From the NCBI GenBank assembly GCA_963732385.1, contig CAVSZB010000007.1, positions 96,001 to 160,000 on the forward strand: a stretch of 64,000 nucleotides of DNA, written 5' to 3'. The stretch comes from an uncultured bacterium. Its GTDB lineage: Bacteria > Krumholzibacteriota > Krumholzibacteriia > LZORAL124-64-63. The notes below the pieces were generated by a model. It saw only the letters and a program-made list of their open reading frames with translations, did no database searches and was not told where the DNA came from. Each line of letters opens with the position of its first letter. The first letter of the stretch is position 1. Made by a program: the position numbers and the translations under genes. This document shows positions 29,192-58,570 of this stretch, piece by piece.

Positions 29192-29210
29192 TAGCCCAGG
29201 GAGGGGCGCT

Positions 29211-34696: not shown

Positions 34697-36173
34697 GCGG
34701 GGATACCTGGTGGCCGAGGCGGCCGCCGACCTCGCCGGGGCACGGCTGCTCGCCGGGGCGCTGATCGCCGCCGGGGGCCACTGGCGGCCGTGGTCGGCCG
34801 CCGGCGGGCAGCCGTTGCCGGGCGCCTTCCACGGCGCTTCGCTCGACTCCCGGCGGATCCGTCCGCATGAGCTGTTCGTCGCCCTGCCGGGAGAGCGGGT
34901 AGACGGGCGGCGTTTCGCGGCCGCGGCGCTGGCCGCGGGCGCTGCCTGCGTGCTGGCCGGGGCGACGGGGGCCGCGGCCGGTGGCACGGACGCGGATCCG
35001 CTGACGGCGGCGGCGCCGCCTCGCGATGGCGCGGTCATCCTGCTCGCCACCGACGCGCGCGCGGCTCTGACCACGCTCGCGGCCTGCTGGCGGGCCGCGC
35101 TGCCGGTCGCGGTGGCGGCCATCACCGGCACCAACGGCAAGACGACGACGAAGGACCTGCTGGCCGCCATCCTGGCCGCCGCGGGTCCGACGCACGCCAC
35201 GGCCGGCAATCTGAACAACACGCTCGGCCTGCCGCTGACCCTGCTCGGGCTGACCAGCGCTCACCGTTTCGCGGTGCTCGAGTTGGGCGCCTCGGCTGAG
35301 GGGGACATCGCGCGGCTGGCGCCGACCGCCGCGCCGCGGATCGGCGTGATCACCAATGCCTCGCCGGCCCATCTCGCGGAGTTCGGCTCGCTCGCGGGGA
35401 TCGTGCGGGGCAAGGGCGAACTGCTCGACGCGCTGCCTGCCGACGGCACCGCGGTGCTCAACGCCGACAGCCAGGGGTTCGACGCCTGGGCGGCGCGGGC
35501 GCGCTGCCGCCTCGTGACGCATGGCGAAACCGGCGGCGATCTGCGCTGGCGCTGGCGTCCGGCGCCGGAGCCGGGCCGTGGGTTGCTGGAACTGGAGGGC
35601 CGGGTCTGGGAGGTCCCGCTGCCGGGGCGCCACAATGGTGCGAACCTCGCCGCGGCTTTGCTCGCCGCGCGCGCCCTTGGCGTGGACGATCGCACGGCCG
35701 CTGCCGGGCTGGCCCGCTTCGCGCCGTCGCCGCACCGCGGTCACCTGGAACGGATCGGCGGAGCGCTCGTGCTCGACGACTGCTACAACGCGAATCCGGC
35801 CAGCGTGCTGAGCGCGGCGACCGCGCTGGTATCGCTGCCCGGAGACGGTCGCGCGCTGGCAGTGCTTGGCGTGATGGCCGAGCTGGGTGACGATAGCGCG
35901 ACGCTGCACCGGCAGACCGGTGAGCGTCTGGCGGCGGCGGGACTGCACGGACTGCTCGCCGTCGGCGCGGGGGCCGAAGAGCTGGCGGCGGGGTTTGCGG
36001 CGGCAGCCCCCGGTCAGGGGTTCTGGGTGGCCGCGAAGCCGGAAGCCACGCAGTGGCTGGTGGAGCAGGCGCGGCCGGGCGATCGCGTGCTGGTGAAGGG
36101 CTCGCGTTCGGCCGGCATGGAGGATGTTCTGGCGGCGTGGCGCCGATCAGCCACGGGCCCAACGGGCGTCTGA
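34689..36173 (+). CDS. murF: UDP-MurNAc-pentapeptide synthetase MurF
   Basis: DSR, GTNGKTTTK, GNLNN.LGLP, D.YNANP.S, LG.MAELG, VKGSR. Confidence 0.95.
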   Translation: MDERGYLVAEAAADLAGARLLAGALIAAGGHWRPWSAAGGQPLPGAFHGASLDSRRIRPHELFVALPGERVDGRRFAAAALAAGAACVLAGATGAAAGGTDADPLTAAAPPRDGAVILLATDARAALTTLAACWRAALPVAVAAITGTNGKTTTKDLLAAILAAAGPTHATAGNLNNTLGLPLTLLGLTSAHRFAVLELGASAEGDIARLAPTAAPRIGVITNASPAHLAEFGSLAGIVRGKGELLDALPADGTAVLNADSQGFDAWAARARCRLVTHGETGGDLRWRWRPAPEPGRGLLELEGRVWEVPLPGRHNGANLAAALLAARALGVDDRTAAAGLARFAPSPHRGHLERIGGALVLDDCYNANPASVLSAATALVSLPGDGRALAVLGVMAELGDDSATLHRQTGERLAAAGLHGLLAVGAGAEELAAGFAAAAPGQGFWVAAKPEATQWLVEQARPGDRVLVKGSRSAGMEDVLAAWRRSATGPTGV

Positions 36174-36188
36174 CGGGGGAGTGGCAGC

Positions 36189-37277
36189 ATGTTCTACCAT
36201 CTGCTCTATCCGCTGCACACCGAATGGTCGGCGCTGCGGGTATTCCAGTACATCACGTTCCGCGGCGCCTACGCCACGATCACCGCCCTGCTCATCAGCT
36301 TTATCTTCGGAGGCTGGGTGATTCGCCGGCTGCACACGCTGCAACTCGGCGAGCGCATCCGGGCGGACGGTCCGCCGACGCACCAGGCCAAGGCCGGCAC
36401 CCCCACGATGGGCGGCGTGCTGATCCTGACCGCCATCGTCGTACCGACGCTGCTGTGGGCCGACCTGACCAATCGTTACGTGCTGCTGGCCCTGCTGGCC
36501 ACGGTCTGGATGGGTCTGCTCGGTTTCATCGACGACTATCTGAAGGTCGTCAAGAAGCGCCCGAAGGGGATGATCGGCCGGGTGAAGCTGGCCGGCCAGG
36601 TCGGTTACGGCATCATCCTGAGTATCCTGCTTCTGGCGGGCAACGGAGGCGCCCCGCTGGTCACCAGCACGACGGTGCCGTTCCTCAAGAACGCGCTGCC
36701 CGATCTCGGGCTGTTCTACATCCCGCTGATCATTCTCGTGGTCGCCGGCACGAGCAATGCGGTCAACCTGACCGACGGTCTCGACGGTCTGGCGATCGGT
36801 CTGTGTGCCCTGGCCTTCGGCGCCTTCGCCGGCCTGTCCTACGTCAGCGGCAACCGCATATTTGCCGCATACCTCAACATCCCTTACCTGCCGGGGGCCG
36901 GCGAGCTGACCATCTACTGTCTGGCCGTCGTCGGAGCGGCGCTCGGCTTCCTCTGGTTCAACGCCCACCCGGCGCGGGTGTTCATGGGTGACACGGGGAG
37001 CCTCGCGCTGGGCGGCGCGCTCGGCACCGTGGCGATCCTGATCAAACGCGAACTGCTGCTGCCGCTGATCGGTGGCATCTTCGTACTCGAAGCGCTTTCG
37101 GTGATGGCGCAGGTGGCGTCGTTCCGCTGGCGCGGCGGACGAAGGATATTTCGCATGGCGCCCATCCACCACCACTTCGAACTGCTCGGCTGGTCGGAGA
37201 CGCAGGTCGTGGTGCGCTTCTGGATCGTGGGCATTCTGCTGCTGTTGCTTAGCTTCAGCACGATCAAGCTGCAGTAG
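36189..37277 (+). CDS. mraY: Phospho-MurNAc-pentapeptide transferase MraY
   Basis: K.GTPTMGG, DDY.K, NAVNLTDGLDGLA, VFMGDTGSL, MAPIHHHFE. Confidence 0.97.
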   Translation: MFYHLLYPLHTEWSALRVFQYITFRGAYATITALLISFIFGGWVIRRLHTLQLGERIRADGPPTHQAKAGTPTMGGVLILTAIVVPTLLWADLTNRYVLLALLATVWMGLLGFIDDYLKVVKKRPKGMIGRVKLAGQVGYGIILSILLLAGNGGAPLVTSTTVPFLKNALPDLGLFYIPLIILVVAGTSNAVNLTDGLDGLAIGLCALAFGAFAGLSYVSGNRIFAAYLNIPYLPGAGELTIYCLAVVGAALGFLWFNAHPARVFMGDTGSLALGGALGTVAILIKRELLLPLIGGIFVLEALSVMAQVASFRWRGGRRIFRMAPIHHHFELLGWSETQVVVRFWIVGILLLLLSFSTIKLQ

Positions 37278-37285
37278 GGGGTGTG

Positions 37286-38671
37286 ATGGCGCGGCCGGAT
37301 GTGCGGGGCGGAATCTACCTGGTGCTCGGACTGGCGCGTAGCGGTTGTGCGGCCGGGGCGCTGCTGCGTCGGCACGGCGCGGTGGTCATCGGCTACGATG
37401 ATGCGCCCGAGCGAGAGCTGCGCGCGGGCTGGGTCGCGCGGGATCTCGCCACGCTGGCCGAGGCGGCCTTCGATGAGGTGCGGGCCGGCGGCGCCTGGGG
37501 CGATCTCGACACGCGACGTCTCGCCGGTGTCGTGCTCAGTCCCGGGTTTCCGCCCGACCACCCGCGGCTGGCCGGCCTGCGGGAACGCGTCGAGGTCCGG
37601 GGCGAACTGGAGTGGGCCGCGCGATTCTGCGGGGCGCGCCTGATCGGAATCACCGGCACGAACGGCAAGACGACCACGACCGAGTTGACCGCCCACCTGG
37701 CCCGCGCCGCCGGCTGGCGCGCGGAGGCGCTCGGCAACGTCGGTCGGCCGTTCAGCCTCGTCGCCGACTCGCTCGGCGTGGATGACGTGGCGGTGTTGGA
37801 GCTGAGCAGCTTCCAGCTCGAGACGATCGAGACCTTCCGGCCGGCGGTGGCGGTGGTGCTCAACCTCGAGCCGGACCATCTGGACCGCTATCCGGACGTG
37901 ACGACCTACTACCGGACGAAACGGCGTCTGGTGGAGGCGCTGCCCCCCGACGGCTGGTTCGTCACCTGGACCGGCTGTCGCGAGGCGCTTGGCTGGCGCC
38001 CGGATGGCCCGTCGCTGCGGTTCGGCGCGCGGATGGACGGGGCGCAGGTCTGGGCCGACGCGGCGGAACTCGGCCTGGACTGGAACGGAGCCGTGCATCG
38101 ACTATGCGAACCGTCCGCGCTGCGGCTGCGCGGGGCGCCCAACCTGCTCAACGCCTGCGCCGCGGTGGCCGCCCTGCTGCCGCTTGGCGCCGATCCGGCG
38201 GCGCTGGCGGCCGGGCTGCCCGGATTTTCCGGCCTGCCGCATCGGCAGCGGACCGTGGCCAGGCTCGGCGATGTGGATTTCGTGGACGATTCCAAGGCGA
38301 CCAACGTCGCCGCCGTGACCGCCGGTCTGGCGGGATACGGCTCAGCGGTCGTGCTCATCGTGGGGGGACGCGGCAAGGGCGAAGACTACGCGCCGCTGAG
38401 GGCCGCCCTCGGGCCGGTCCGGGCCGTGGTGTCCATCGGCGAAGAGGGCCCGGCGATCGCGGCCACGCTGGCCGGCCTGGTGCCGGTCCTGCCGGCCGCC
38501 ACCCTCGATGAGGCGGTGGCAACCGCCGCCCGCCTGGCCGCGCCGCGGGGAACCGTGCTGCTGAGTCCCGCCTGCGCGAGCTACGACATGTTCCGGGACT
38601 ATGTCGATCGCGGCGAACGTTTCACCGCGGCCGCCCACGCGTTGGGCGCCGTTGCCGGGGAGGAAACATGA
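37286..38671 (+). CDS. murD: UDP-MurNAc-L-Ala:D-Glu ligase MurD
   Basis: GLARSG, GITGTNGKTTTT, ELSSFQL, DHLDRY, DDSKATN, LLSPACASYD.F. Confidence 0.96.
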   Translation: MARPDVRGGIYLVLGLARSGCAAGALLRRHGAVVIGYDDAPERELRAGWVARDLATLAEAAFDEVRAGGAWGDLDTRRLAGVVLSPGFPPDHPRLAGLRERVEVRGELEWAARFCGARLIGITGTNGKTTTTELTAHLARAAGWRAEALGNVGRPFSLVADSLGVDDVAVLELSSFQLETIETFRPAVAVVLNLEPDHLDRYPDVTTYYRTKRRLVEALPPDGWFVTWTGCREALGWRPDGPSLRFGARMDGAQVWADAAELGLDWNGAVHRLCEPSALRLRGAPNLLNACAAVAALLPLGADPAALAAGLPGFSGLPHRQRTVARLGDVDFVDDSKATNVAAVTAGLAGYGSAVVLIVGGRGKGEDYAPLRAALGPVRAVVSIGEEGPAIAATLAGLVPVLPAATLDEAVATAARLAAPRGTVLLSPACASYDMFRDYVDRGERFTAAAHALGAVAGEET

Positions 38672-39861
38672 CGAGGATCCTGCGCCGCTGGTCCGGTCGG
38701 CTGGAGGAGTACGACGGCTGGCTGCTCTGGGCCGTGTTCGTGCTTTGTCTGCTCGGCACGGTGATGGTCTACGAGGCGGGCAGCTTCCGGCCCGAAGCGC
38801 GGGGGCACGCCGACTACCTGTTGCGTCACCTCACGCGGCTGGCCCTCGGTCTGGCCGCGCTGTTCGTGCTGGCCGGCCGCGATGACCGCGACCTGCGCCG
38901 ACCGCTCGTGAACTGGGGACTGCTCGGCGGGGCGCTGGCGCTGATGGCCTTCACGGTCGTGATGGGGCTCGGTTCCTCGCGCGCCGGCTGCGCCCGCTGG
39001 CTGTCTTTCCTGCCGGTGCAGCCGATCGAACTGGCCAAGGTGGCCCTGGCGATCTTCCTGGCCGAGCGCCTGGCCGACCCCTCCCGCCGCTGGGCCTTTG
39101 ACCGCGAACTGGCCCGACTGTTGGCGGCGCCGGCGGCCCTGGTCGTGATTCTGGCCCTGCAGCCGAACTTCGGCAATGCCCTGGTGATCTGCCTGTTCAC
39201 GCTCGTCATGCTGTACGCGGGCGGCATGCCGCTGCGGATGTTCGGGCTGATGCTCGGCCCGCTCGGCGGGTTGGCCCTGCTCGGGGTGCTGTTCGTGCCG
39301 AAGATCACCTTCCGCGTCAGTTCGTGGTGGGCCGGGCTGACCGGCGACGGGGCCGGCTACCAGGTTCACCAGTCGCTGATCGGACTGGGCGCCGGTGGCT
39401 GGCACGGCTTCGGTTTCGGCGGCAGCCATCAGCGTTTCTGGTTCCTGCCCGAGTCGCACACCGACTTCATCTTCTCCGTGGTGGGGGAGGAACTGGGGCT
39501 CATCGGGGCGGCCCTGACGTTGGCGCTGCTCGTGATCGTGGCTCTGCGCGGGTACGGCATCGCGAGGCGGGCCCCTGACCGCTTCGGGCGGTTCACCGCG
39601 GCCGGCCTGACCACGCTGTTGTTCCTGTACGCCTTCCTGAACATGGCCATGGTGACCGGCGTGGTGCCGGTGATGGGGTTGCCGCTGCCGTTCGTAAGCT
39701 ATGGCGGTTCCGCCCTGGTGACGAACCTGGCCGCGGTGGGCCTTTTGCTGGCCATCGACCGCCGCGCGCGCGCCGCACGGGCGGCGGCGCCGCGGCAGGC
39801 GCGCCTGTGGGAGACAGCCGGGGAGGGGAGCGCGCGTGTCTGGTCGCGGGCACAGAGCTGA
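38668..39861 (+). CDS. ftsW: SEDS peptidoglycan polymerase FtsW
   Basis: ARW, QPIELAK, QPNFG, LPESHTDFIF.VVGEELG, LPFVSYGGS. Confidence 0.95.
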   Translation: MTRILRRWSGRLEEYDGWLLWAVFVLCLLGTVMVYEAGSFRPEARGHADYLLRHLTRLALGLAALFVLAGRDDRDLRRPLVNWGLLGGALALMAFTVVMGLGSSRAGCARWLSFLPVQPIELAKVALAIFLAERLADPSRRWAFDRELARLLAAPAALVVILALQPNFGNALVICLFTLVMLYAGGMPLRMFGLMLGPLGGLALLGVLFVPKITFRVSSWWAGLTGDGAGYQVHQSLIGLGAGGWHGFGFGGSHQRFWFLPESHTDFIFSVVGEELGLIGAALTLALLVIVALRGYGIARRAPDRFGRFTAAGLTTLLFLYAFLNMAMVTGVVPVMGLPLPFVSYGGSALVTNLAAVGLLLAIDRRARAARAAAPRQARLWETAGEGSARVWSRAQS

Positions 39862-40969
39862 CGGCGGCCGTCCGGTCCGCCTCCTGATCGCGGGGGGCGG
39901 CACGGGCGGACACGTCTATCCGGGCCTGGCAGTGGCGGAGGCGGTGCGCCTGCTCTGCCCCGCGGCGGAAGTGCGCTTCTGCGGGACCCGCCAGGGGCTC
40001 GAGGCCACGGTCGTGCCGGCGGCCGGCTGGCGTCTGCACACGGTTCCCGCCTCCGGGATGCGCGGGCTCGGCCCGGTCGCGCGCGGGCGGTTCCTGGTGA
40101 ACCTCGTGGCCGGCGATCTGGCGGCGCTGGCGCTGCTGCTGCGGTGGCGTCCCGACGCTGTGCTCGGCACCGGCGGCTACGCAAGCGCGCCGGCGCTGTT
40201 GGCGGCGCGCTCGCTCGGAGTGCCGGTGGCGCTGCAGGAGCAGAACGCCGTGCCCGGCTCCGCGAACCGACTGCTCGCGCGCTTTGCGAACCGGATCTAT
40301 CTCGGCACCGCGGCGGCGGCCGAACGGTTCCCGGGGCGCGACTGCCTCGTCACGGGCAATCCGGTGCGCGCCGCCTTCAGCGCGGCGGCGGTCGGGCCGG
40401 CCGGGGCGCCCGACGTCCTGAACGTGCTGATGTTCGGTGGCAGTCGCGGCGCGCGCACGCTCAACCGCGCCGCGCGCGAACTGGCGGTGCTCTGGCGCGG
40501 GCGTGAGGACATCGCGCTCCTGGTGCAGACCGGCCCCGCCGGGCGCGACGAGGTCGCGGCTGCCTTCGCCGGCTGGGCGCCGGAGCGGGCGCGGGTCGTG
40601 GCCTACATCGATGACATGGCGTCCGCGCTGGCCGGGGCCGATCTGGCGGTCTGCCGCGCCGGGGCCATGACGCTGGCCGAGCTGGCGGTGGCCGGGAGGC
40701 CGGCCGTGCTGGTACCGTTTCCGCATGCCACGGACGATCATCAGTGGCACAATGCGCAGGATGTGGCGGTCGGCGGGGCCGCCGTGGTCGTGCGCGACGA
40801 GACCTGCGACGGAGCGACGCTCGCCGCGATCATGAGCGAACTGGGCCGCGATCGGTCACGGCTGGCGGCCATGGCGCGCGCGAGCGCGGAGCGGGCACGG
40901 CCCGACGCCGCGCGGCGCATCGCGAGCGACCTGTTGCGGCTGGCCGGATGCGCCATGCCCGGCGCGTAG
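39836..40969 (+). CDS. murG: Lipid II GlcNAc transferase MurG
   Basis: GGGTGGHVYPG, GGY.S, EQNAVPG.ANR, GNPVR, GGSRGA, HQ..NA. Confidence 0.96.
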   Translation: MSGRGHRADGGRPVRLLIAGGGTGGHVYPGLAVAEAVRLLCPAAEVRFCGTRQGLEATVVPAAGWRLHTVPASGMRGLGPVARGRFLVNLVAGDLAALALLLRWRPDAVLGTGGYASAPALLAARSLGVPVALQEQNAVPGSANRLLARFANRIYLGTAAAAERFPGRDCLVTGNPVRAAFSAAAVGPAGAPDVLNVLMFGGSRGARTLNRAARELAVLWRGREDIALLVQTGPAGRDEVAAAFAGWAPERARVVAYIDDMASALAGADLAVCRAGAMTLAELAVAGRPAVLVPFPHATDDHQWHNAQDVAVGGAAVVVRDETCDGATLAAIMSELGRDRSRLAAMARASAERARPDAARRIASDLLRLAGCAMPGA

Positions 40970-40981
40970 GAGGAGGACAGC

Positions 40982-42364
40982 GTGTTCCGGAACACCCGGC
41001 ACATCCACATGGTCGCGATCGGCGGGGTGGGGATGAGCGGCATCGCCGAGATCCTGCTCAACCTCGGTTTTCGCGTCAGCGGCAGCGACCTGCGCCTGTC
41101 GCCCGCGACGGAACGGCTGGCGCGGCTCGGGGCGACGATCCACATCGGTCATCGGCCGGAGCAGATCATCGGCGCCGACGTCGTCGTCTACTCGTCCGCC
41201 GTCACGGCTGCCAATCCGGAAATCGTCGAGGCCCGTCGCAGGCGCGTCCCGGTCGTGCGGCGCGCCGACATGCTGGCCGAGTTGATGCGCCTGAAGTACG
41301 GGATCGCGATCGCCGGCTCCCACGGCAAGACCACCACCACTTCCCTGGTGGCTGCCGTGCTTGCCGAGGGGTCGCTCGATCCGACCGTGCTGGTGGGCGG
41401 CCGGGCGCTGGCCACGGGTCGCAACGCCGTGCTGGGCAGCGGCGAGTATCTCGTCGCCGAGGCTGATGAGAGCGACGGCACGTTCCTCCGTCTGACGCCG
41501 ACCATTGCCGTCGTGACCAACATCGATCTCGAGCACGTCGATCACTACCCCGATCTCCCCGCGCTGCGCGCGGCGTTCGCGGAGTTCCTGGCCCGGGTGC
41601 CGTTCTACGGTACCTGCGTGCTCTGTCTGGACGACCCGGAGGTGCGCGGCCTGGTGGCGCGTCTCGATCGCAAGGTGATCACCTACGGGCTGTCCGCCGA
41701 GGCGCAGGTGCGGGCCGTTCCGGCCGCGTCCACTCCCGACGGTCCCGCGGTCGCTACGGTCTTCGCCCACGGCTGCGAACTGGGGCCGATCGAGTTGCGA
41801 CTGCGCGGGCGGCACAACCTGGTCAACGCGCTGGCGGCGGTGGCGGTCGGGATGGAACTGGGCGTCTCCTTCGGGCAGATCGCCGCCGGACTGGCCCGGT
41901 TCGCCGGCGTGGACCGGCGCTTCGAGGAGCGCGGGGAGCACGGCGGTGTGCGCGTGGTAGACGATTACGGTCACCACCCCACCGAGATCGGCGCCACGCT
42001 GCAGGTGGCGTGCGATACCGGTCGGCGGGTGGCCGTGCTGTTCCAGCCGCATCGCTACACGCGCACGGCGCGTTTCCGGCACGAATTCGCCGATGCTCTC
42101 GCCGTGGCCGACACGGTCGCTCTGCTGCCGGTCTACGCCGCCAGCGAGGAGCCGCAGCCTGGCGTGGACAGCGGGCTGATCGTGAGCGGGCTGCGGGACA
42201 AGGGCCTGACCGACGCTGTGCAGGTGGAGGATCTGGACGAAGTGCGGTCGTGGCTTGACGCCGCGGTACGGCCCGGCGATTTGCTGCTGACGCTCGGCGC
42301 GGGCGATATCGGACGCCTGGTCGACCCGATCTGCGGCCATCTGGATACGAGGAGACTGCCATGA
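40982..42364 (+). CDS. murC: UDP-MurNAc:L-Ala ligase MurC
   Basis: IGGVGMSGIA, GSHGKTTTTS, EADESDG, DDYGHHPTEI, FQPHRYTRT. Confidence 0.97.
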   Translation: MFRNTRHIHMVAIGGVGMSGIAEILLNLGFRVSGSDLRLSPATERLARLGATIHIGHRPEQIIGADVVVYSSAVTAANPEIVEARRRRVPVVRRADMLAELMRLKYGIAIAGSHGKTTTTSLVAAVLAEGSLDPTVLVGGRALATGRNAVLGSGEYLVAEADESDGTFLRLTPTIAVVTNIDLEHVDHYPDLPALRAAFAEFLARVPFYGTCVLCLDDPEVRGLVARLDRKVITYGLSAEAQVRAVPAASTPDGPAVATVFAHGCELGPIELRLRGRHNLVNALAAVAVGMELGVSFGQIAAGLARFAGVDRRFEERGEHGGVRVVDDYGHHPTEIGATLQVACDTGRRVAVLFQPHRYTRTARFRHEFADALAVADTVALLPVYAASEEPQPGVDSGLIVSGLRDKGLTDAVQVEDLDEVRSWLDAAVRPGDLLLTLGAGDIGRLVDPICGHLDTRRLP

Positions 42365-43308
42365 GCTGCAACCCGCTCACCCCGGGAGAGCGCGGCCCGG
42401 CTGCCGGTTCCGCGTTGGCGTCGACGCGACGGGGACGCCGGCCGCGCCGCCGGCTGCTCTGGCTGCTGTCGCTGGCGTTCATTGCCGTGGCGGGAGTGCT
42501 CGGGGGGGCCCGCTGGCTGCTGACGGCCGAGCGGTTCGCGGTTGTGCGGATCGAGACCGGCCCCTATCGCTTCAGTGATCCGGCCCGGCTCGAGGCGCAA
42601 CTGGGCACCGCACTCGGCAGCAACATCTGGACCGGCGCCGGCGCGCGCCGGCTGTTGGTCGATCTGCCCGCTCTGCCGTGGGTGCGCCGGGCCCGCGTGG
42701 CGCGAGAACTGCCCGGCACGCTGCGTGTCGAGATCGAGGAGTGGCGTCCGCTGCTGGAGGTGGCGCCCGATTCAAGCGTCGGCGCGGGGCCAGGCGAATT
42801 TGTCCTGCTTGCCGATGGGCGCGTGGAGCCGTTCCCCGGCCATCTTCCGCGGCCCGATCTGCCGCTGCTGGTCGGCGCGCGGTTGCAGACGCGGCCCGAC
42901 GGCGGCTGGCGGCTCGTGCCGGGCCAGGCCGACAGCGTGCTCGCGCTCGCGGCGGCCGTGGCCGAGACCGGGATTGAGGGGTGTGCGCCGGTGGATTTCA
43001 TTCTGACCGGCGACGAGGGGCTGAGCCTGGTGCTGCAGGGGGGGCGGGCCCGCCTCCTGGTCGGTGGCGAGGACTATGCCGGTCGCCTGCGCCGGTTCCT
43101 CGCGCTGCGCAACCGACTGTCGGATGGCGCCGTGGTCGACCTCCGGTTCGAACGGCGACTTTTCGTGGATGACCAGAACACTGCCGAACCGTTGCCTGCG
43201 GGCGACGGCGCCGGAGCAGCAGAGGAATCGGCGGTCCGGCGCGGCCGGGCCACGGTCGCGGCGCCTGCGGGCCGCGCCGCACGCGCACGCGCCCGAGCGC
43301 GCGTCTAG
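42361..43308 (+). CDS. ftsQ: Cell division protein FtsQ/DivIB
   Basis: Single TM, POTRA-like PWVRRARVARELPGTLRVEIEE, C-terminal VDLRF; lies before ftsA. Confidence 0.85.
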   Translation: MSCNPLTPGERGPAAGSALASTRRGRRPRRRLLWLLSLAFIAVAGVLGGARWLLTAERFAVVRIETGPYRFSDPARLEAQLGTALGSNIWTGAGARRLLVDLPALPWVRRARVARELPGTLRVEIEEWRPLLEVAPDSSVGAGPGEFVLLADGRVEPFPGHLPRPDLPLLVGARLQTRPDGGWRLVPGQADSVLALAAAVAETGIEGCAPVDFILTGDEGLSLVLQGGRARLLVGGEDYAGRLRRFLALRNRLSDGAVVDLRFERRLFVDDQNTAEPLPAGDGAGAAEESAVRRGRATVAAPAGRAARARARARV

Positions 43309-43329
43309 ACGACCGGGAAGGAGCCTCGG

Positions 43330-44592
43330 ATGAGCAACGGACAACTGCTGGTCGCCTGCGACTTCGGAACCTCCAATTTCCGTACGCTGGTCAGCACGGT
43401 GGGCGCGGACGGGCGCGTCGAGGTGCTCGGCGCGGCCTGCGTGGCGGCTGCCGGTTTCCGCGACGGCGATTTCGTCGATCTGCAGGCCGGGAGCCACGCG
43501 ATCGAACGGGCGGTGGGGGCGGCCGAGGCGGAAGCCGACGTCGACATCGCCGCTTTCTTCTACAACATCGCCGGCAGTCACCTGCGATCCTTCTCGGCGC
43601 GGGGACAGATCCAGCTCGGGCCGGTCCCGCGCGCCATCACCGCGGTCGACATGGACTCCGCGCTGAACCGTGCGCGCACCCTGGAGATCCCATTCGACCA
43701 GTGCATCCTCGCCGCCAACCCGGTCGATTGGGCGGTGGACCGGGTCCACGGCATCGTCGATCCGCGCGGCCGGCTTGGCAGCCAGCTCCAGGTCGATGCC
43801 CACCTCGTGACCGCCTCCGGAACCGTCGTGCGCAACGTGGAGCACGCCATCAAGACGGCCGGCTATGAGGTCGCCGGCCGTGCAGTGGACAGCCTGGCCA
43901 CGGCCGAGGCTCTGCTGCAGACGCAGGAGCTCGATGAGGGGGTTTTGCTGATCGATGTCGGGGGACGTTCCACGCAGTGGGCGCTCTTCCGCGGCGGACG
44001 GCTGGCCGGCAACGGCGCCGTGCCGTGGGGCGGCGCCCATCTGACCGCCGACCTCGCGCATGGCCTGCGCGTCGGCCTCCAGGAGGCGGAGCAGGTGAAG
44101 AGGCAGTGCGGCGTCGTGCTGCGTAGTCTCGTGGATGAAGCCGACCCTTTGGCGCTGTTCGAGGAGGAGCGCCCGGCTCCGTCGCCCGGCCTGCTCGCCG
44201 CGATCCTCGAACCGCGTCTCGAGGAGATATTCGCGCTGGTGAAGAACGATCTGCGCGACCCGGGTCTGCTTTCCGGGCTGGGTCGCGGCGTGGTGCTGAC
44301 CGGCGGCGGCAGTCGTTGCCGCGGCGCCGCCGCGCTCTGCGAGGAGGTGTTCGGGCTGCCGGCCGTCTGTCGCTATCTGCCGCCGGGAATGGCAGGGAAC
44401 GAGCGGCTGGGCGACGGCCAGTGGGCCACCGCGCTCGGCCTGACCCTCTGGGCGATGCGCGGCGAGGTGCAGACCCGGGCAGCCGTTGCGTCGGCGGGCG
44501 GCGGGGAGACGTCGGTCCCCCTCTGGCACCGGATGCGCAGCCGGCTGGGACGGGCCTCCCGGCCCGGGGGGGGGGCGGCGCCGGGGCGTTGA
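43330..44592 (+). CDS. ftsA: Cell division protein FtsA
   Basis: DFGTS, IAGSH, LIDVGG, GG..LT.DL, VVLTGGGS, ATALGL, C-terminal amphipathic helix. Confidence 0.92.
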   Translation: MSNGQLLVACDFGTSNFRTLVSTVGADGRVEVLGAACVAAAGFRDGDFVDLQAGSHAIERAVGAAEAEADVDIAAFFYNIAGSHLRSFSARGQIQLGPVPRAITAVDMDSALNRARTLEIPFDQCILAANPVDWAVDRVHGIVDPRGRLGSQLQVDAHLVTASGTVVRNVEHAIKTAGYEVAGRAVDSLATAEALLQTQELDEGVLLIDVGGRSTQWALFRGGRLAGNGAVPWGGAHLTADLAHGLRVGLQEAEQVKRQCGVVLRSLVDEADPLALFEEERPAPSPGLLAAILEPRLEEIFALVKNDLRDPGLLSGLGRGVVLTGGGSRCRGAAALCEEVFGLPAVCRYLPPGMAGNERLGDGQWATALGLTLWAMRGEVQTRAAVASAGGGETSVPLWHRMRSRLGRASRPGGGAAPGR

Positions 44593-44719
44593 ACGCGACG
44601 GTGCGCGTGAAAAAGGTATTGGACGGAACCTTCGCCATGTGCTAATTATCGCCCCGTCACGGATGGCGGCCCGCCTGAGGATCGCGTGCACCCGGCTCAT
44701 GGATGAGGGGGCGATCATC

Positions 44720-46264
44720 ATGTTCGAGTTCGTTGAAGATGTCGATCAGGTAGCCCGGATCAAGGTCGTTGGGGTTGGCGGGGCGGGCGGCAATGCCGTC
44801 AACCGCATGGTCGAGGCGGGGCTCACCGGGGTCGAATTCCTGGCCGTCAATACTGATGCCCAGGCCCTGCGCCAGTCGCTCGCCCATCAGACCCTGCAGA
44901 TTGGCACGCAGATCACGCGCGGGCTCGGCTCCGGCGGAGATCCGGTCATCGGTCGCAAGGCGGTCGAGGAGGACGAGGCGGCGCTGACCGACGCTCTCCA
45001 CGGTTGCGACATGGTGTTCGTCACCGCCGGCATGGGCGGCGGCACCGGCACCGGCGCCGCGCCGGTCGTGGCCCGCATCGCCCGCGAACTCGGCGCGCTC
45101 ACCGTGGCTGTCGTCACCAAGCCGTTCGGGTTCGAGGGCAGTGTCCGCATGGCGCAGGCGGAGGTGGGAACTTCCGAACTGCGGGACAACGTCGACACGC
45201 TGATCATGATCCCCAACCAGCGGCTGCTCGAGGTCATCCCTCCCACGACGACCTTCATCGAGGCGTTCCGGATCGCCGACAACGTGCTCTACGAAGCGAC
45301 CCGCGGCATCCATGAGATTATCGCCCGTCCCAACCTGGTCAATCTCGACTTCGCCGACGTCCGCTCAGTCATGAAGGGCATGGGTGTGGCCCTGATGGGG
45401 ACCGGTCGGGCGCGGGGCGAAAACCGGGCCGAGGAGGCTGCGCGCGCGGCGATCAGTTCGCCGCTGCTGGAGGATGTCGACATCCACGGCGCCCGCGCGG
45501 TGCTCGTCAATCTCACAAGCGCCGATCTCGGCATCGCCGAGGTGAGCCGCGCCATGAGCCTCGTGCAGGAGGCGGCCGGCGCTCAGGCGCACATCATGTT
45601 CGGCTATGGCATCGATGAGGCCCTCGGAGACGAACTGCAGGTCACGGTCGTGGCGACCGGTTTCACGGCGGGTCAGCCGCCGGTAGCGGAGTCCCCGGTG
45701 GTTGCGCGCGCCGCGGCGCGCGTCGAGGCAGCGCCGACGCCGGCTTCGGTGGCGTTTGCCCCGGCGCCAGACCTCCCCCCTGCTCCGAAGCCCGCCGTGC
45801 TGGCTGAGCCGGCCGCGCCGGCGCAAATTCCGGCTCCGGCCGTCGCCGCCACCGCTGTCGCGGCCGCGACCGTCGCTGCGACGCCGGCCGCGCAGCCCGC
45901 TCCTGACTCCTTCTTTATCACTTCGCCGGCGTCATCGCCGCCGCTGCGGCGGGCTGCGCCTGCGCCCGAACCGGCCCTCGCGTGGGAGGAAAAGGTCGCG
46001 CCGCCCGCCCCCCGGCATCTCGTCGCCGCGGCGGCCGCCGCCGGCAGCGACGATTTCCTGGTTGCCCGGCCTGCCGCTTCGGAACTGTCCGATCCGCTCC
46101 GACCGTTCCTGACGCCGCTTGATCCGGTGGCGCCGCTGGCAGCGACGGTCGGGACCGGTGGGGGCTCTTTCGGCGCGCCGGCCGCGCGGACTTCGTCCTT
46201 CCAGAGCGACGCGCTCATGGCCGACCTCAGCGAACCGGCCTACACGCGGAAGTACCTGGACTGA
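44720..46264 (+). CDS. ftsZ: Cell division protein FtsZ (long C-terminal linker)
   Basis: GVGGAGGNAVNRM, NTDAQAL, GMGGGTGTGAAP, NLDFADV, VVATGF; ends in EPAYTRKYLD. Confidence 0.97.
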   Translation: MFEFVEDVDQVARIKVVGVGGAGGNAVNRMVEAGLTGVEFLAVNTDAQALRQSLAHQTLQIGTQITRGLGSGGDPVIGRKAVEEDEAALTDALHGCDMVFVTAGMGGGTGTGAAPVVARIARELGALTVAVVTKPFGFEGSVRMAQAEVGTSELRDNVDTLIMIPNQRLLEVIPPTTTFIEAFRIADNVLYEATRGIHEIIARPNLVNLDFADVRSVMKGMGVALMGTGRARGENRAEEAARAAISSPLLEDVDIHGARAVLVNLTSADLGIAEVSRAMSLVQEAAGAQAHIMFGYGIDEALGDELQVTVVATGFTAGQPPVAESPVVARAAARVEAAPTPASVAFAPAPDLPPAPKPAVLAEPAAPAQIPAPAVAATAVAAATVAATPAAQPAPDSFFITSPASSPPLRRAAPAPEPALAWEEKVAPPAPRHLVAAAAAAGSDDFLVARPAASELSDPLRPFLTPLDPVAPLAATVGTGGGSFGAPAARTSSFQSDALMADLSEPAYTRKYLD

Positions 46265-53858: not shown

Positions 53859-54494
53859 ATGATCACGACCTGTACCGGATGTCAGACCCGTTACCGCCTG
53901 GACGACGGCCGAGTGCCGCGGCGCCGGATCCGGGTGCGCTGCCCGCGTTGCGAGGCGGTCTTCGCCCTGGACGGGACGCAGGCGGCGGCGCAGGTCGCGC
54001 CGGCCGAGGACGGGCTCGTCATCGAGCGCTCCGGAGGGGGTCTGTTCAGCGCTCCGCCGGCCTCCGCGGCGGCAGTGGAGATGCCACGCCCCGTTCCTCA
54101 TCCGCAATCGTTCCCGACTCCTGCGCCGGCCGCGGCTCCGGCGGGCGCTTTCGCGACCGCGCGGACGACGACGGTCTCGACCGCCGCGGTGGCCGAGCCG
54201 GCGGCTCCGGCCGCCGATCCCGAGGCTCCCGGCGATCCGGGCGGCCGACCGCGCCGCGATCGCGACAAGGCCCGCCGCCTGGCGCGCGCCCTGGTGTCCG
54301 ACATCCTGGTCTACAACCGCGAATCGCGCGACCGGGCCATGAAAGAGGGCAACCTCATCCAGGCGCTCGGTCCTGAAATCAAGAAGTCGTGGGAGTTGTA
54401 CAAGGAGCGGGTCACCCCCGAGGTGGCCAACAGCACTTCGCATTTCCGGGACGCCCTGAACGAGATCCTGGCCGAGGGGCAGAAAGTCTTCTAG
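53859..54494 (+). CDS. Zinc-ribbon (MJ0042-type) protein with Pro/Ala linker and RomX-like C-terminal domain
   Basis: CTGC...VRCPRC N-terminus; C-terminal ARRLARALVSDILVYN...EI.KS.ELYKERV...F.DALNEIL. SD GGAGG. Confidence 0.8.
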   Translation: MITTCTGCQTRYRLDDGRVPRRRIRVRCPRCEAVFALDGTQAAAQVAPAEDGLVIERSGGGLFSAPPASAAAVEMPRPVPHPQSFPTPAPAAAPAGAFATARTTTVSTAAVAEPAAPAADPEAPGDPGGRPRRDRDKARRLARALVSDILVYNRESRDRAMKEGNLIQALGPEIKKSWELYKERVTPEVANSTSHFRDALNEILAEGQKVF

Positions 54495-54514
54495 GACGGA
54501 AGGAGCAGGCCGGG

Positions 54515-55384
54515 ATGGATCAATCCGCCCCGGAAGCCCTCACCTTCGGGCTGTCCACGCGCGCGTTGGCGGAGCTCAAGGGGCTCGCGCCGGCCGAGGG
54601 GGACCGTCTGCGTCTGGCGTTGGCCGGCGAGGACCCGGTGCTGGCGCCCGATGATCCGGGTGAGCGCCTCTGTGCGCTGCTGGTTGCTGCCGAGTGCGGC
54701 GGGGAAATCCCGCCGGCGCTGGTGGCCGCCATACGCGAACACCTCGACGGCGGTCGCTATCTGATCGCCCTTTCGAGTCGCGGCGGCGCCGCGACCGGCG
54801 GCGGCGGTGAGTGCGTCGCGGGGACTGACGGAGCGATTGCGAACGGAGAAACGTTCGGTCCGGCCGGCGGGGAGACCGGCGCCTTCCGTGAGTTCCTGGA
54901 TCGCTGGCGCTTCGAACGTATTTTCCGCACTGCACCGCAACTGGCCGGCTATGGACGGGCCACGCTCGAACTGACCATTCCGAACGAAGAGGCCCTCATC
55001 CCGGGACTGAGTCATACCGTGGGGCTGCTGCTGCGGGAGTTCGGATTCGCCCAGGACGACTGGATGTCCACCGTGCCTCTGGTGCTTGACGAGGTGCTGA
55101 CCAACGCCATGCGCCACGGCAACCAGGGGGTGCCGGGAAAATGCGTGCACGTCAGTGTCGTCATCGACGCCGAGATGCTGCGCGTGACCGTCACCGATGA
55201 GGGAGAGGGCTTCCAGCGCGAAGGCGTGGCCGATCCCCGCCAGGGTGACCGCATCTGGCGCACGGGTGGGCGGGGACTGTTTCTGATCGAGCAGTTGATG
55301 GACGAAGTGTCCTACCGCGACGAGGGGCGCACCGTCGATCTCGTCAAGCACAATCGTGCCGTCAGCTCCCCTTGCCTCGGCTGA
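54515..55384 (+). CDS. RsbW/SpoIIAB-like anti-sigma Ser/Thr kinase (HATPase_c_2) with N-terminal extension
   Basis: EVLTNAMRHGN, DEGEGF, GGRGLFLI..LMDEV.Y; SD AAGGAG. Confidence 0.85.
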   Translation: MDQSAPEALTFGLSTRALAELKGLAPAEGDRLRLALAGEDPVLAPDDPGERLCALLVAAECGGEIPPALVAAIREHLDGGRYLIALSSRGGAATGGGGECVAGTDGAIANGETFGPAGGETGAFREFLDRWRFERIFRTAPQLAGYGRATLELTIPNEEALIPGLSHTVGLLLREFGFAQDDWMSTVPLVLDEVLTNAMRHGNQGVPGKCVHVSVVIDAEMLRVTVTDEGEGFQREGVADPRQGDRIWRTGGRGLFLIEQLMDEVSYRDEGRTVDLVKHNRAVSSPCLG

Positions 55385-55802
55385 TATCCGTCAGGATGGC
55401 GTCGATGTGCTGACGGATGCGGGTGTTCTGATCCGGTTCGAAGAGCGCCTTCCGCACCCGCCCGTCGGAATCCTTCTTGAGGTACCGCAGCGATTGCAGG
55501 TCGGTCATGGGCATCAGGATGTCCTTGGAGACCTTGACCTCGATGGTCTCCCCCTCCTGGTTGCAGCCCGGATTGTTGAACGGGTGCATGCCCATGCCCC
55601 AGCCGTGGACGATCATCGAGCAGACCAGAGCGCGGAATGTGTTCTGACCCTGGACAGTCTCGAGATCGAGGTTGTCGCTCAGGCGGTCCATCACGCCGTC
55701 CACCATGAGCACCAGCTTCTCGACGACCGTGGGGTCGATCTCCATCTGCAGCAGCCGGGTGAACATCGCTTTGAGAATCCGGTCCGTATTGGTGACGGTC
55801 AT
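55362..55802 (-). CDS. Hypothetical protein (146 aa)
   Basis: GGAG 8 nt upstream of ATG, G/C-ending codons, globular-type composition, upstream sigma54 motif. No family recognised. Confidence 0.7.
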   Translation of the reverse strand: MTVTNTDRILKAMFTRLLQMEIDPTVVEKLVLMVDGVMDRLSDNLDLETVQGQNTFRALVCSMIVHGWGMGMHPFNNPGCNQEGETIEVKVSKDILMPMTDLQSLRYLKKDSDGRVRKALFEPDQNTRIRQHIDAILTDISRGKGS

Positions 55803-56070: not shown

Positions 56071-56958
56071 ATGATGGACAGCCACTCGACCACCGCCGTC
56101 TCCTCACCGGCCCGCACCTGCCGCGTCCTCTTCTTTGGACCGTCCGGGAGTGGCAAGACGGCGAATCTAATCCAGATCGCCAGTTGCGTGCCGCAGGAGT
56201 TCCGGGTGCCGGTCGCGGCGACGGGGGGGGGCGAGCGTTTCAGCTTCCGCGTGGATGCCGGCGATCTCGGTCCCTGGATCGTCGAGGCGGTGGTTGCCGA
56301 TGCCGCGGCGGTGGGCGTCCCCGTGGCCGCCGGGCGCGGCTTCCCCTTCGACGGTGTGGTTTTCGTGGCCGACTCCAGCGCCGACCGTCTCGATCTGAAC
56401 CTGAGCGCGATCGAGACGTTGAAGACCGATCTCGAGGCGGGCGGGTACGATCTCACCTCTCTGCCGATGGTGATCCAGTACAACCACCAGGACGCTCCGG
56501 GGCGCCTGCCGGTGGATCGGCTCGAGAGCCTGCTCAATCCCTGGGGCATGCCGTCGTTTCCGGCCATCGCGGCCCAGGGGGTGGGGGTACGCGAGACTCT
56601 GCGCGCCGTGCTCGGGCTGACGATGCGTCAGCTCGATCGCGCCGCCGCCGCGCCCGCTGAAACCGACGGGCCCGGATCCGGTTGTGACCATGCCCCGGCC
56701 GCGATGCCGGCGCCAGCGTCCGCATCGCCGGCGCCAGCGGCAGCGTTTTCGCGGGCGGTCTCGGTGCCGGCGCCCGCGGTGGGCGATGACCGGGTGCTCC
56801 GCATCGAACCGGAGGAGCGGGGCGAGACCATGTTCGCCACCCGCCGTCCTCCCATCGTCGTCCCGGTGCGGGTGCCGCGCTCGTTGCTGGAGCGCTACGG
56901 CACGGTGCGGATCGTGCTCGAGTTGGAAGTGGACGGTCGCGGCCCCGGCGTGGATTGA
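56071..56958 (+). CDS. Degenerate MglA-like small GTPase with C-terminal extension
   Basis: VLFFGPSGSGKTANL (P-loop), DGVVFVADS, LPMVIQYNHQD, FPAIA.QGVGVRETL follow the MglA pattern; G3/TVPGQ is absent. Confidence 0.75.
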   Translation: MMDSHSTTAVSSPARTCRVLFFGPSGSGKTANLIQIASCVPQEFRVPVAATGGGERFSFRVDAGDLGPWIVEAVVADAAAVGVPVAAGRGFPFDGVVFVADSSADRLDLNLSAIETLKTDLEAGGYDLTSLPMVIQYNHQDAPGRLPVDRLESLLNPWGMPSFPAIAAQGVGVRETLRAVLGLTMRQLDRAAAAPAETDGPGSGCDHAPAAMPAPASASPAPAAAFSRAVSVPAPAVGDDRVLRIEPEERGETMFATRRPPIVVPVRVPRSLLERYGTVRIVLELEVDGRGPGVD

Positions 56959-57001: not shown

Positions 57002-57030
57002 TTGACCCGCCGTTCTGTCTCGCTTATCCT
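57002..57030 (+). promoter_or_regulatory. sigma70-type promoter, probably giving a leaderless mRNA
   Basis: TTGACC-N17-TATCCT, 7 nt before ATG 57038; no SD. Confidence 0.6.
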
Positions 57031-57037
57031 CTCCCAC

Positions 57038-57925
57038 ATGACAGATTTACGCCACACAGCCCTGCCCGCCGACGGCGATCAGGCCGCGCACACCGGAACC
57101 GAATGGTTCGCACTCGGCCAGCGCGCCGAGGGGGACGGCGATCTGGACGCCGGCAGGCGGGCCTACGCGGCCGCGGTCGCGCAGGATCCGCGCCAGCCGG
57201 AATGGCACTACCGGCTCGGCTGTGTCAGCCGTAAGCTCGGTCTGCTTGCTGAGGCGGTGGTCGCCTTTCGACGGGCCGCCGAACTGGCGCCGGAGGAGGC
57301 GCGTCACCTGTTGAATCTGGGCACTGTGTTCGACCGTCTCGGCCAGCGGGAAGAGGCGGTGCGCAGCTACCAGGCGGCGCTCTCGCGCGACCCGCGCAAC
57401 GCCGAGGCGCACAACAATCTCGGCGCCATCCACGCGGAGGCGGGGCGTTCGGAAGAGGCGGTGCGTTCGTTCGAGGCGGCCATCGCGGCGCGGCCCGATG
57501 CGCAGGGGTGGCAGAATCTCGGCCTGGTGCATTTCCATCAGGACGATTTCGAGCGGGCGCTGCACTGCTTCGAACAGGTGCTGCTGCTCGCCCCCGACTC
57601 CGCGCTGGGGCACTACTACGCCGGTCTGTGCCAGATGCGCAAGGGGCTCTACCGCGAGGCGACGCTGCGTTTCCGCCGCGCCTTCGAACTCGATGCGCGT
57701 CTCGGTCGCGCCCAGTTTCACGCCGGGGCCTGTCTGCACAAGGTGGGGCGTTTCGACGAGGCGCTGCTGGCGCTGCGGCGGGCTCTGGAATCGTTTCCGG
57801 AGGATCCGCGGCTGCACTACCAGCTCGGCCTCACCTGCGATGCGCTGCTGCTGCATCAGGAGGCGCGCCAGCACTATCGCCACGCCCGCGCCGTCAATGC
57901 CGGCGGCTTCGGCGGTACGCTCTGA
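57038..57925 (+). CDS. Cytoplasmic tetratricopeptide repeat protein
   Basis: About eight consecutive TPRs (e.g. AEAHNNLGAIHAEAGRSEEAVRSFEAAI). Confidence 0.9.
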   Translation: MTDLRHTALPADGDQAAHTGTEWFALGQRAEGDGDLDAGRRAYAAAVAQDPRQPEWHYRLGCVSRKLGLLAEAVVAFRRAAELAPEEARHLLNLGTVFDRLGQREEAVRSYQAALSRDPRNAEAHNNLGAIHAEAGRSEEAVRSFEAAIAARPDAQGWQNLGLVHFHQDDFERALHCFEQVLLLAPDSALGHYYAGLCQMRKGLYREATLRFRRAFELDARLGRAQFHAGACLHKVGRFDEALLALRRALESFPEDPRLHYQLGLTCDALLLHQEARQHYRHARAVNAGGFGGTL

Positions 57926-57974: not shown

Positions 57975-58349
57975 TCAGGCGATCGTCGCGTCGAGGCAGC
58001 GACTGACAGTTTCGCGCACCCGATCCGGATCGAACGGCTTCACCAGGAAATCGCGCGCGCCGGCCTTGATCGCCTCGAGCACCTTCTGTTTCTGACCGAG
58101 AGCGCTGATCATGATCACGTTCGCGTCCGGGTCGGCCGCGACGATCGCCTTGAGCGCGCCGATGCCGTCCAGACGGGGCATGGTGATGTCGAGCGCGACG
58201 AGATCGGGCTTCAATTCACGGTACATGTGCACCGCCTGCTCGCCGTCGCGCGCTTCGCCCGCCACGGTCAGTCCCATCTCGCAGACGATCTCCCTGAGCA
58301 TCGCGCGCATGAATTCAGCGTCGTCCACGATGAGAACTGTGTTGCCCAT
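57975..58349 (-). CDS. CheY-like single-domain response regulator
   Basis: LIVDDAEFMR.ML, LDITMP.LDG, MISALGQ, DFLVKPF (Bacillus/Thermotoga CheY-type pattern). Confidence 0.9.
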   Translation of the reverse strand: MGNTVLIVDDAEFMRAMLREIVCEMGLTVAGEARDGEQAVHMYRELKPDLVALDITMPRLDGIGALKAIVAADPDANVIMISALGQKQKVLEAIKAGARDFLVKPFDPDRVRETVSRCLDATIA

Positions 58350-58570
58350 CAATGACCTCCCCAGGGCCCGTGCTGCCCTGGTGGTGGCGGGCCGGCCGCG
58401 GCCGGCGGCTTCTGTTGCTTCGGCGCGCTGACGGTCCGCGCCGGAGTCCGGCGCCTCGCGAGCCTGGCGGCCGGGCATCTCCATGGTGTACTTTGGTTTC
58501 GACGCGACCGGCGGCCCCCTTTAGCCTGATATCCGCGGGGGATGGGCGCCGATCGGGAAGGAGGGGCGGC

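Follow-up and report, generated by a model that had tools for sequence, protein, structure and literature searches.

A predicted pseudo-GTPase derived from an MglA paralogue in a family of Krumholzibacteriota

MglA serves as the model for Ras-like switches of bacterial cell polarity, and pseudo-GTPases are, to our knowledge, known almost only from eukaryotes. Group 1 MglA proteins are characterized, in the available sections of the survey by Wuichet and Sogaard-Andersen (2015, PMC4316618), by a G2 Arg-Thr pair that includes an intrinsic Arg finger, a TVPGQ motif with the catalytic Gln, and a G4 motif of the form [NT]KxD. Here we describe an MglA-like protein that departs from this pattern, encoded in a 64,000-nucleotide stretch of DNA from an uncultured bacterium of the Krumholzibacteriota (the window; positions 96001-160000 of contig 7 in a genome of 3.8 Mb and 9 contigs). 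The protein has an MglA fold and lacks the switch-I Thr as well as the switch-II Gly and Gln, and we propose, with a probability of roughly 0.7, that it is a pseudo-GTPase likely to serve as a fixed-state adaptor instead of switching between GTP and GDP; the term pseudo-GTPase is used throughout as a prediction from sequence. The gene and its parts are as follows.

56071 to 56958, forward strand: MglA-derived pseudo-GTPase gene (predicted), an intact open reading frame (ORF) of 295 residues whose best PDB relatives are MglA
56104 to 56658, forward strand: G domain with predicted MglA fold, residues 12-196 (AlphaFold2, AF2, and Foldseek)
56137 to 56160, forward strand: P-loop GPSGSGKT (G1), intact in the window copy
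56224 to 56256, forward strand: degenerate switch I / G2, GGGERFSFRVD, the counterpart of canonical DRTLFFDF
56290 to 56322, forward strand: degenerate switch II / G3, VVADAAAVGVP, without TVPGQ
56482 to 56493, forward strand: G4 variant NHQD, where canonical MglA has NKRD
56506 to 56547, forward strand: family-specific invariant surface LPVDRLESLLNPWG, residues 146-159, from the orthologue alignment
56563 to 56589, forward strand: G5-like A..GVGV, aligned with AFQGVGV of canonical MglA
56659 to 56841, forward strand: Pro/Ala-rich linker, residues 197-257, predicted disordered (predicted local distance difference test, pLDDT, below 50)
56842 to 56955, forward strand: conserved C-terminal tail RRPPIVVPVRVPRSLLERYGTVRIVLELEVDGRGPGVD, residues 258-295 (block pLDDT 70-81)

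All of the short strings on which the original prediction of an MglA-like protein was built are present in the translation: GPSGSGKT at residues 23-30, TGGGERFSF at 51-59, DGVVFVADS at 94-102, IQYNHQD at 135-141 and the A..GVGV.ETL segment, which reads AIAAQGVGVRETL, at 165-177, followed by a Pro/Ala-rich stretch at about residues 192-257 and a tail, PPIVVPVRVPRSLLERYGTVRIVLELEVD, at residues 260-288. The ATG start at 56071 is common to the orthologues, which open with MMDSH, and a longer open frame from 55672 showed no conservation among them. A protein collection held 33 orthologue-like proteins of 256-325 residues with 38-94% identity, some of them labelled as Krumholzibacteria genome bins. 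Pfam and NCBIfam searches of the protein gave no significant match. A phmmer search of all PDB chains, by comparison, returned MglA of Myxococcus xanthus (5YMX, E 4e-24) and of Thermus thermophilus (E 2e-18), and the next matches beyond MglA stood at E 0.05 or worse. The AF2 model, built on 29 homologues, has block pLDDT values of mostly 84-97 in the G domain, and its top Foldseek match in the PDB is 6izw_A, the complex of MglA-GTPgammaS with MglB (E 1.3e-17, TM 0.82 on the target). TM scores on the target were 0.75-0.82 for MglA bound to GTP analogues (0.76-0.82 in four MglB complexes) against 0.72-0.75 for GDP forms, and the top 12 among the matches listed are all MglA. MglA is thus the closest solved relative both by sequence and by predicted fold, and an unrelated P-loop family, which had been named in advance as a possible better structural match, did not emerge.

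A profile of 29 orthologues was searched against 208 genomes of the phylum, 91 from the window's own family and 117 from eight other families. Full-length matches were obtained in 66 of the 91 (E 4.7e-57 or better, one of them partial) and in none of the 117, where the best matches had E 2e-38 or weaker and covered the G domain only. Motif counts refer to proteins from 42 of these 66 genomes, namely that of the window and those of 41 others (29 loci returned by the search plus 12 fetched). Alignment with the canonical MglA of the same genome (31% identity, E 3e-28) sets GERFSFRV against DRTLFFDF, D-AAA against TVPGQ, and NHQD against NKRD. Residues 40-92 are too divergent for one register, with MAFFT auto and L-INS-i differing by one residue at switch I; the G2 position is without threonine in either. 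Across the family it holds I in 36 proteins, L in 3, F in 2, A in 1 and Thr in none, F59 is the sole invariant residue of switch I, and an Arg is kept beside the lost Thr in the L-INS-i register. TVPGQ is likewise absent from the window copy and from the entire set of 42. D77 is present in all of them, a G3 of the VDxG[RKQ]E type in 38 (G79 and E81 in 38 each) and a Gln at the aligned catalytic position in 4, and the window's genus has ADAAA or ADAAV with neither Gly nor Gln. The replacement of the RT.FFD segment, the disappearance of TVPGQ and the change of NKxD to NHQD, all read from the window copy in the original prediction, therefore stand, and they are losses that the orthologues share; within the orthologue family there was no sign of the retained TVPGQ and NKRD that would have spoken for a single decaying copy. 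Its description of the P-loop as kept holds for the window's genus, the window copy having GKT, and fails for the family: G23, G28 and K29 are invariant (42/42), and the Walker-A residue at 30 is an Arg in 38 of the 42 proteins, giving GKR, a Thr in 3 and a Ser in 1.

The remaining nucleotide motifs are retained to different degrees. G5 keeps A165 in 35 proteins and G172 in all 42; G4 has its Asn in 42, its Asp in 28 and its Lys in 2, the Lys position being filled elsewhere by R (19), G (8), N (4), H (3), Q (3) and others (3). The step from NKxD to NHQD in the window copy and the variation of G4 across the family could be taken to mean that nucleotide specificity has been switched, for instance to ATP or xanthine nucleotides. 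The guanine-reading Asn is nevertheless universal and the Asp common, and the replacements of the Lys, without a new consensus, look like relaxed constraint; altered specificity, which had been suggested from the sequence of this copy, found no support here, and we regard it as very improbable.

Since the residues through which the switches sense the gamma-phosphate, and those that place the catalytic water, are lost, the protein would no longer cycle. A working GTPase with unconventional catalysis would have to read the surviving motifs differently, with GKT, the switch-I Arg, D77, the Asn and Asp of G4, and G5 together binding Mg-GTP and a partner supplying the water-positioning residue in trans, as some GTPase-activating proteins do. 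G1, the G4 Asn and Asp, and G5 are indeed intact in the window's subclade of four (the window, L014, L040 and L049), the Arg beside the lost Thr is kept and D77 is invariant, and MglA groups with a deviant G4 are still GTPases in the available part of PMC4316618. Weighing more heavily, the G2 Thr that binds Mg and gamma-phosphate is gone from every protein read, the G3 Gly and Gln are both gone from the window's genus, and the sister clade of 38 has an Arg at the Walker-A Thr; 14 of the 42 proteins are also without the G4 Asp, and yet the remainder of the protein is equally conserved. Selection therefore preserves something other than the nucleotide site, and an unconventional GTPase seems to us unlikely.

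Conservation has shifted away from the nucleotide site. R18, W69, LPVDRLESLLNPWG and the tail vary little or not at all within the family and are unconserved in active MglA proteins. Within the 146-159 surface, L151-G159 (LESLLNPWG) is invariant in the orthologue alignment, and D149, R150, S153, L154, W158 and G159 show at least 90% conservation across the family, though not across active MglA proteins. The Pro/Ala linker and tail noted earlier behind the G domain are both there: the linker, predicted to be disordered, varies in length and sequence among orthologues, and the tail is conserved, with P265, V266, P269 and L283 invariant. A search with the tail region returned only 10 close orthologues, 19 tails compared with Pfam at E <=10 gave no relevant family, and a tail profile search of the PDB gave nothing. 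A Ribosomal_L23 match to the tail (E 0.05) was taken as chance, and a likeness of its strand-helix-strand pattern to AbrB/SpoVT-type swapped hairpins drew no support from the Pfam and PDB tests.

The gene sits in a conserved neighbourhood. In 18 family loci fetched with flanks and chosen for long contigs, the order is in every case a zinc-ribbon protein gene (+), u146 (-), the target (+) and a tetratricopeptide repeat (TPR) protein gene (+), followed mostly by a CheY gene (-) and a DUF4139 gene (+). In the window these neighbours are the following.

53859 to 54494, forward strand: zinc-ribbon / RomX-like fusion (Pfam Zn_ribbon_4 at residues 1-35, RomX match at residues 134-206)
55362 to 55802, reverse strand: u146, an orphan gene of 146 residues and divergent neighbour, with no family match
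57038 to 57925, forward strand: TPR protein of 295 residues (Pfam TPR_1/TPR_2, E ~1e-40), 80 bp downstream of the target
57975 to 58484, reverse strand: CheY-type single-domain response regulator (Pfam Response_reg, E 5e-30)

At all eight loci inspected in five other families (L052-L057, L064 and L065), the slot between u146 and the TPR gene is taken by an MglA paralogue of 348-556 residues, in each case with GKTTN, DRT[LI]FFDF, TVPGQ and NKRD or NKQD. These long paralogues are 54-58% identical to canonical MglA (48% in one, L057) and continue into an acidic, Pro-rich disordered linker of 150-350 residues and then a tail of the target's pattern, e.g. ..TIEVPVRLTRNQISKSVPIKLELKIQVVDD. The tails can be aligned over VPV...IxLxhxh, and the slot is held by a tail-bearing protein of this kind in 18/18 family and 8/8 other-family loci. 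Separately, the linkers of the long paralogues carry a conserved short motif resembling F[IV]TDP[MLW]RR, and their C-terminal tail is amphipathic. In a tree of 69 G domains with SH-aLRT (approximate likelihood ratio test) support, 13 canonical MglA proteins form one clade (100) and the 42 degenerate proteins another (100), whose stem measures 3.5 substitutions per site. The degenerate clade lies with the long paralogues on the non-canonical side (95), the mutual order of the two being unresolved, and within it the window's GK[T/S] subclade is sister to the 38 GKR proteins (96).

The target is therefore the family orthologue of a long MglA paralogue that keeps every G motif elsewhere in the phylum. 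Since the slot elsewhere holds a canonical-motif paralogue with the same kind of tail, the degenerate form probably has a single origin, at the base of the window's family. The possibility that this copy is simply decaying, which was raised beforehand for the case that orthologues retain TVPGQ and NKRD, has to be answered in two parts: syntenic orthologues of other families do retain them (8/8 loci), and the loss is thus lineage-specific, extending across the lineage, and not the decay of one copy. Together with the deletions described below, the phylum presents a series from an active tail-bearing paralogue through a P-loop-keeping degenerate form and a GKR form to gene loss. In the protein collection, many MglA-like proteins of 330-510 residues from metagenomes retain TVPGQ and NKRD and end in hydrophobic anchor-like segments or amphipathic strand tails; TVPGQ is kept in 37 of the 40 such long proteins read. 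These endings suggest that the C-terminus may serve as a tethering device across the long MglA-like class.

A canonical switch is encoded in the same genome. The only PF03259 (Roadblock) match of the whole genome lies outside the window, in an mglB-mglA pair that occupies 55.9-57.1 kb of the same contig, some 95 kb upstream of the target; the 205-residue canonical MglA that directly follows the Roadblock gene has GKTTN, DRTLFFDF, TVPGQ and NKRD. The earlier remark that no mglB adjoins the target is borne out by this arrangement, and a search with the genome's own MglB found no roadblock gene within ~7 kb of the paralogue slot in 14/14 loci. With a canonical MglB/MglA pair present, a RomX-like protein encoded two genes away and a model slightly closer to MglB-bound, GTP-like MglA than to GDP forms, the target could be imagined as a decoy that sequesters MglB or RomR/RomX-type regulators of canonical MglA and so tunes the canonical switch. 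MglB touches MglA mainly through the switch regions, as seen in complex structures from T. thermophilus and M. xanthus. Those regions are the most diverged parts of the target, and the slot has no mglB match nearby at any of the 14 loci, which leaves a decoy, in our estimation, distinctly unlikely.

Several lines of evidence bear on whether the gene is maintained. The reading frame is unbroken in each of the 41 other genomes read, and dN/dS (NG86) is 0.09-0.31 in 58 within-genus pairs. Compared with a same-genus genome, the G domain has a dN/dS of 0.205, the linker 0.49 and the tail 0.03, with 0.047 for the neighbour u146; medians taken genus by genus run from 0.07 to 0.22 in the G domain, from 0.03 to 0.32 in the tail and from 0.29 to 0.62 in the linker. 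Hence the target is a retained functional gene under purifying selection and not a decaying copy, and the original call of a hydrolysis-dead, MglA-like scaffold, for which purifying selection on the orthologues had been proposed as a check, is upheld as a prediction from the fold, the shared absence of the G2 Thr and TVPGQ, and the dN/dS values. Metatranscriptome contigs from two runs of one study, at 90-95% likeness, overlie parts of u146, of the target (56152-56459 and 56508-56690) and of the TPR gene; these contigs come from relatives, DNA carry-over is possible, and neither level nor strand can be read from them.

Some members of the family have no copy of the gene. At all six loci inspected (L058-L063, one from each of six genera without a match), the target gene is cleanly absent and u146 is the immediate neighbour of the TPR gene, the two being separated by ~120-220 bp or overlapping. 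Six family genera thus lost the gene after the degenerate form had arisen. One could go further and see a gene without function in the course of being lost, since 25 of 91 family genomes are without it and it evolves faster than its neighbours (35-49% identity, as against 64-81% for u146 at the same loci). The uniformly intact frames, the dN/dS range and the value of 0.03 for the tail in the window's genus, invariant stretches such as LESLLNPWG, and the age of a clade that spans many genera all contradict this, and we hold it to be extremely improbable.

Among the neighbours, the zinc-ribbon fusion and the TPR protein are of most relevance for possible partners. The C-terminal 73 residues of the fusion (134-206) match M. 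xanthus RomX (PDB 8ZNA, residues 5-77; E 1e-10), its zinc ribbon is weakly like the ribbon of a gliding-motility protein (7zok, E 0.08), and the fusion is found in 18/18 family loci and in 13/14 further loci; the locus showed no RomR-like gene. The TPR gene lies behind the target in 18/18 family loci and, in other families, behind the long paralogue. In M. xanthus, SgmX is reportedly a TPR-protein partner of MglA. A TPR protein of Bdellovibrio, Bd2492, binds MglA, and Bdellovibrio has no MglB, according to the available text of PMC3983030. RomX is, in the accessible part of a preprint (10.1101/2024.02.20.581209), a three-helix bundle of which one helix binds MglA-GTP and another the RomR receiver. 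The 80-bp gap before the TPR gene contains a sigma-70-like promoter match at 57002-57030 (+), with TTGACC, a 17-nt spacer and TATCCT, where 0.1 is expected from shuffles, so the TPR gene may also have its own promoter.

The divergently transcribed gene u146 is single-copy and occurs in 197 of 208 genomes of the phylum, is 64-81% identical across the 18 family loci and carries the invariant motifs CSMxxHGWGxGMHP and LFEPDQNxR. It has almost no relatives outside the phylum (33 representatives, mostly fragments, among 1.84 billion clustered proteins), no match in Pfam or NCBIfam and none in a PDB profile search, and its AF2 model is poor (pLDDT 61), with no Foldseek match at E <=0.001. We considered and dropped u146 as a RomX-like or roadblock-like partner: RomX 8ZNA is not among the Foldseek matches listed, and the RomX-like domain is in the zinc-ribbon protein. 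Since u146 stays where the GTPase gene is lost, it is not claimed as a partner. The response regulator, whose best PDB relatives are CheY proteins (E 1e-40), is present in 17/18 family loci. A gene for an anti-sigma-factor-type kinase (HATPase_c_2) lies between the RomX fusion and u146 at 54389-55384 (+) and is found only in some related loci. Farther out, about 10 kb upstream, a complete division and cell-wall cluster occupies 28685-46264 (+) with mraZ, a penicillin-binding protein transpeptidase, Mur ligases, mraY, ftsW, murG, ftsQ, ftsA and ftsZ; a TPR-peptidyl-prolyl isomerase gene and recG lie between this cluster and the module.

From these observations we propose that the GTPase cycle was given up at the base of the family and that binding surfaces, namely the LPVDRLESLLNPWG face and the tail, were kept. 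The window copy, with G1 (GKT), the Asn and Asp of G4, and G5 in place, would probably still hold a guanine nucleotide and would be able neither to read its gamma-phosphate nor to hydrolyse it. Most relatives are further gone, with GKR and often without the G4 Asp, and are likely nucleotide-free. The protein may bind partners of the module constitutively, the RomX-like fusion and the downstream TPR protein being candidates; the tail would position it, and regulated switching would be left to the canonical MglA/MglB pair encoded elsewhere. A more speculative version of this scheme, which we offer tentatively and consider rather doubtful, is that of a nucleotide-independent, permanently 'on-like' polarity landmark derived from an MglA paralogue. 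In that case, for most of the family, the Mg/gamma-phosphate site would be filled by the Arg of GKR together with the invariant Asp and the Glu newly gained in VDxGRE, and the GTP state would be mimicked without nucleotide; the protein would be held by an amphipathic tail that is interchangeable in relatives with a membrane anchor, and the phylum would keep the whole series.

Some findings weigh against a fixed-state adaptor. With GK[T/S], N.[QR]D and G5 all in place, the window subclade may bind nucleotide and even hydrolyse it slowly or with the help of a partner, and the Arg next to the lost Thr is retained. The tilt of the model toward GTP-like MglA states is small and may be an AF2 bias. 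In some genera dN/dS reaches 0.2-0.3, which is relaxed relative to u146 (0.047), and some members of the family do without the gene, 25 of 91 genomes having no full-length match. Where the target has been deleted, u146 and the TPR gene stay (6/6), as does the RomX fusion except in one locus (L061), so these neighbours do not depend on the target. Finally, u146 is divergently transcribed and phylum-wide, and its adjacency to the target may be inherited and not functional.

How, then, does the protein compare with described systems? With Group 1 MglA of M. xanthus and T. thermophilus (5YMX, 6IZW, 3T12) it shares the fold, ~50% identity over residues 93-191, the P-loop, DGVVFVADS, QYN..D and the G5 A..G.GV. 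It differs from them in having no G2 Thr, no TVPGQ and no G4 Lys, an interswitch three residues shorter, a 60-residue disordered linker with a conserved 35-residue tail, and no coupling to MglB. Of the Group 1 features the window protein thus has the fold and the P-loop GxxxxGK[T/S], and it lacks the G2 Arg-Thr pair, TVPGQ, [NT]KxD and the link to MglB; judged by these motifs, it should not be filed as an MglA switch. The long paralogue of other Krumholzibacteriota families occupies the same slot, passes likewise from G domain through disordered linker to a ..VPV....h.IvLeh.h tail and falls on the target's side of the tree, but it keeps GKTTN, DRTLFFDF, TVPGQ and NKRD/NKQD and its linkers are much longer. 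SofG of M. xanthus and the Bdellovibrio MglA are MglA-family members that act without a coupled MglB (available sections of PMC4316618 and PMC3983030). Unlike the target, they keep the GTP-binding residues, and SofG has GTPase activity and an intrinsic Arg (PMC4316618, same sections); those sections report for neither protein a loss of G2/G3 or a tail like that of the target. The main survey of prokaryotic small GTPases worked, in the portion available, with a window of 150-240 residues (PMC4316618). Long MglA paralogues that end, behind a disordered linker, in a C-terminal tail or anchor fall outside that range, so their architecture may be under-described.

A full-text literature search, which left out most subscription journals, gave no paper linking MglA, or bacteria, to a pseudo-GTPase of this kind. 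The pseudo-GTPase description in the accessible text of PMC12490416 names a GTPase-like sequence and structure and retention under purifying selection, which are found here with the structure as a prediction, and an inability to hydrolyse or bind GTP, which for the target would follow from the loss of the G2 Thr, the G3 Gly and Gln and the G4 Lys; by its motifs the target fits the sequence definition of a pseudo-GTPase given in the available parts of PMC12490416 and PMC10211241. Active form, P-loop intermediate, GKR form and deletions occur in one phylum and one neighbourhood, and they provide a natural series for finding which small-GTPase surfaces work without a nucleotide cycle, as well as a RomR-free setting for what RomX-type and TPR partners recognise. 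In keeping the fold and losing the catalytic motifs, the protein resembles the eukaryotic pseudo-GTPases CENP-M, the pG domains of p190RhoGAP, the psGD of AAGAB and the Rnd proteins, which are used for protein-protein interaction or scaffolding according to the accessible sections of PMC10211241 and PMC12490416. Those proteins, however, belong to unrelated Ras-like lineages, whereas the active ancestor form of the Krumholzibacteriota protein survives in sister lineages.

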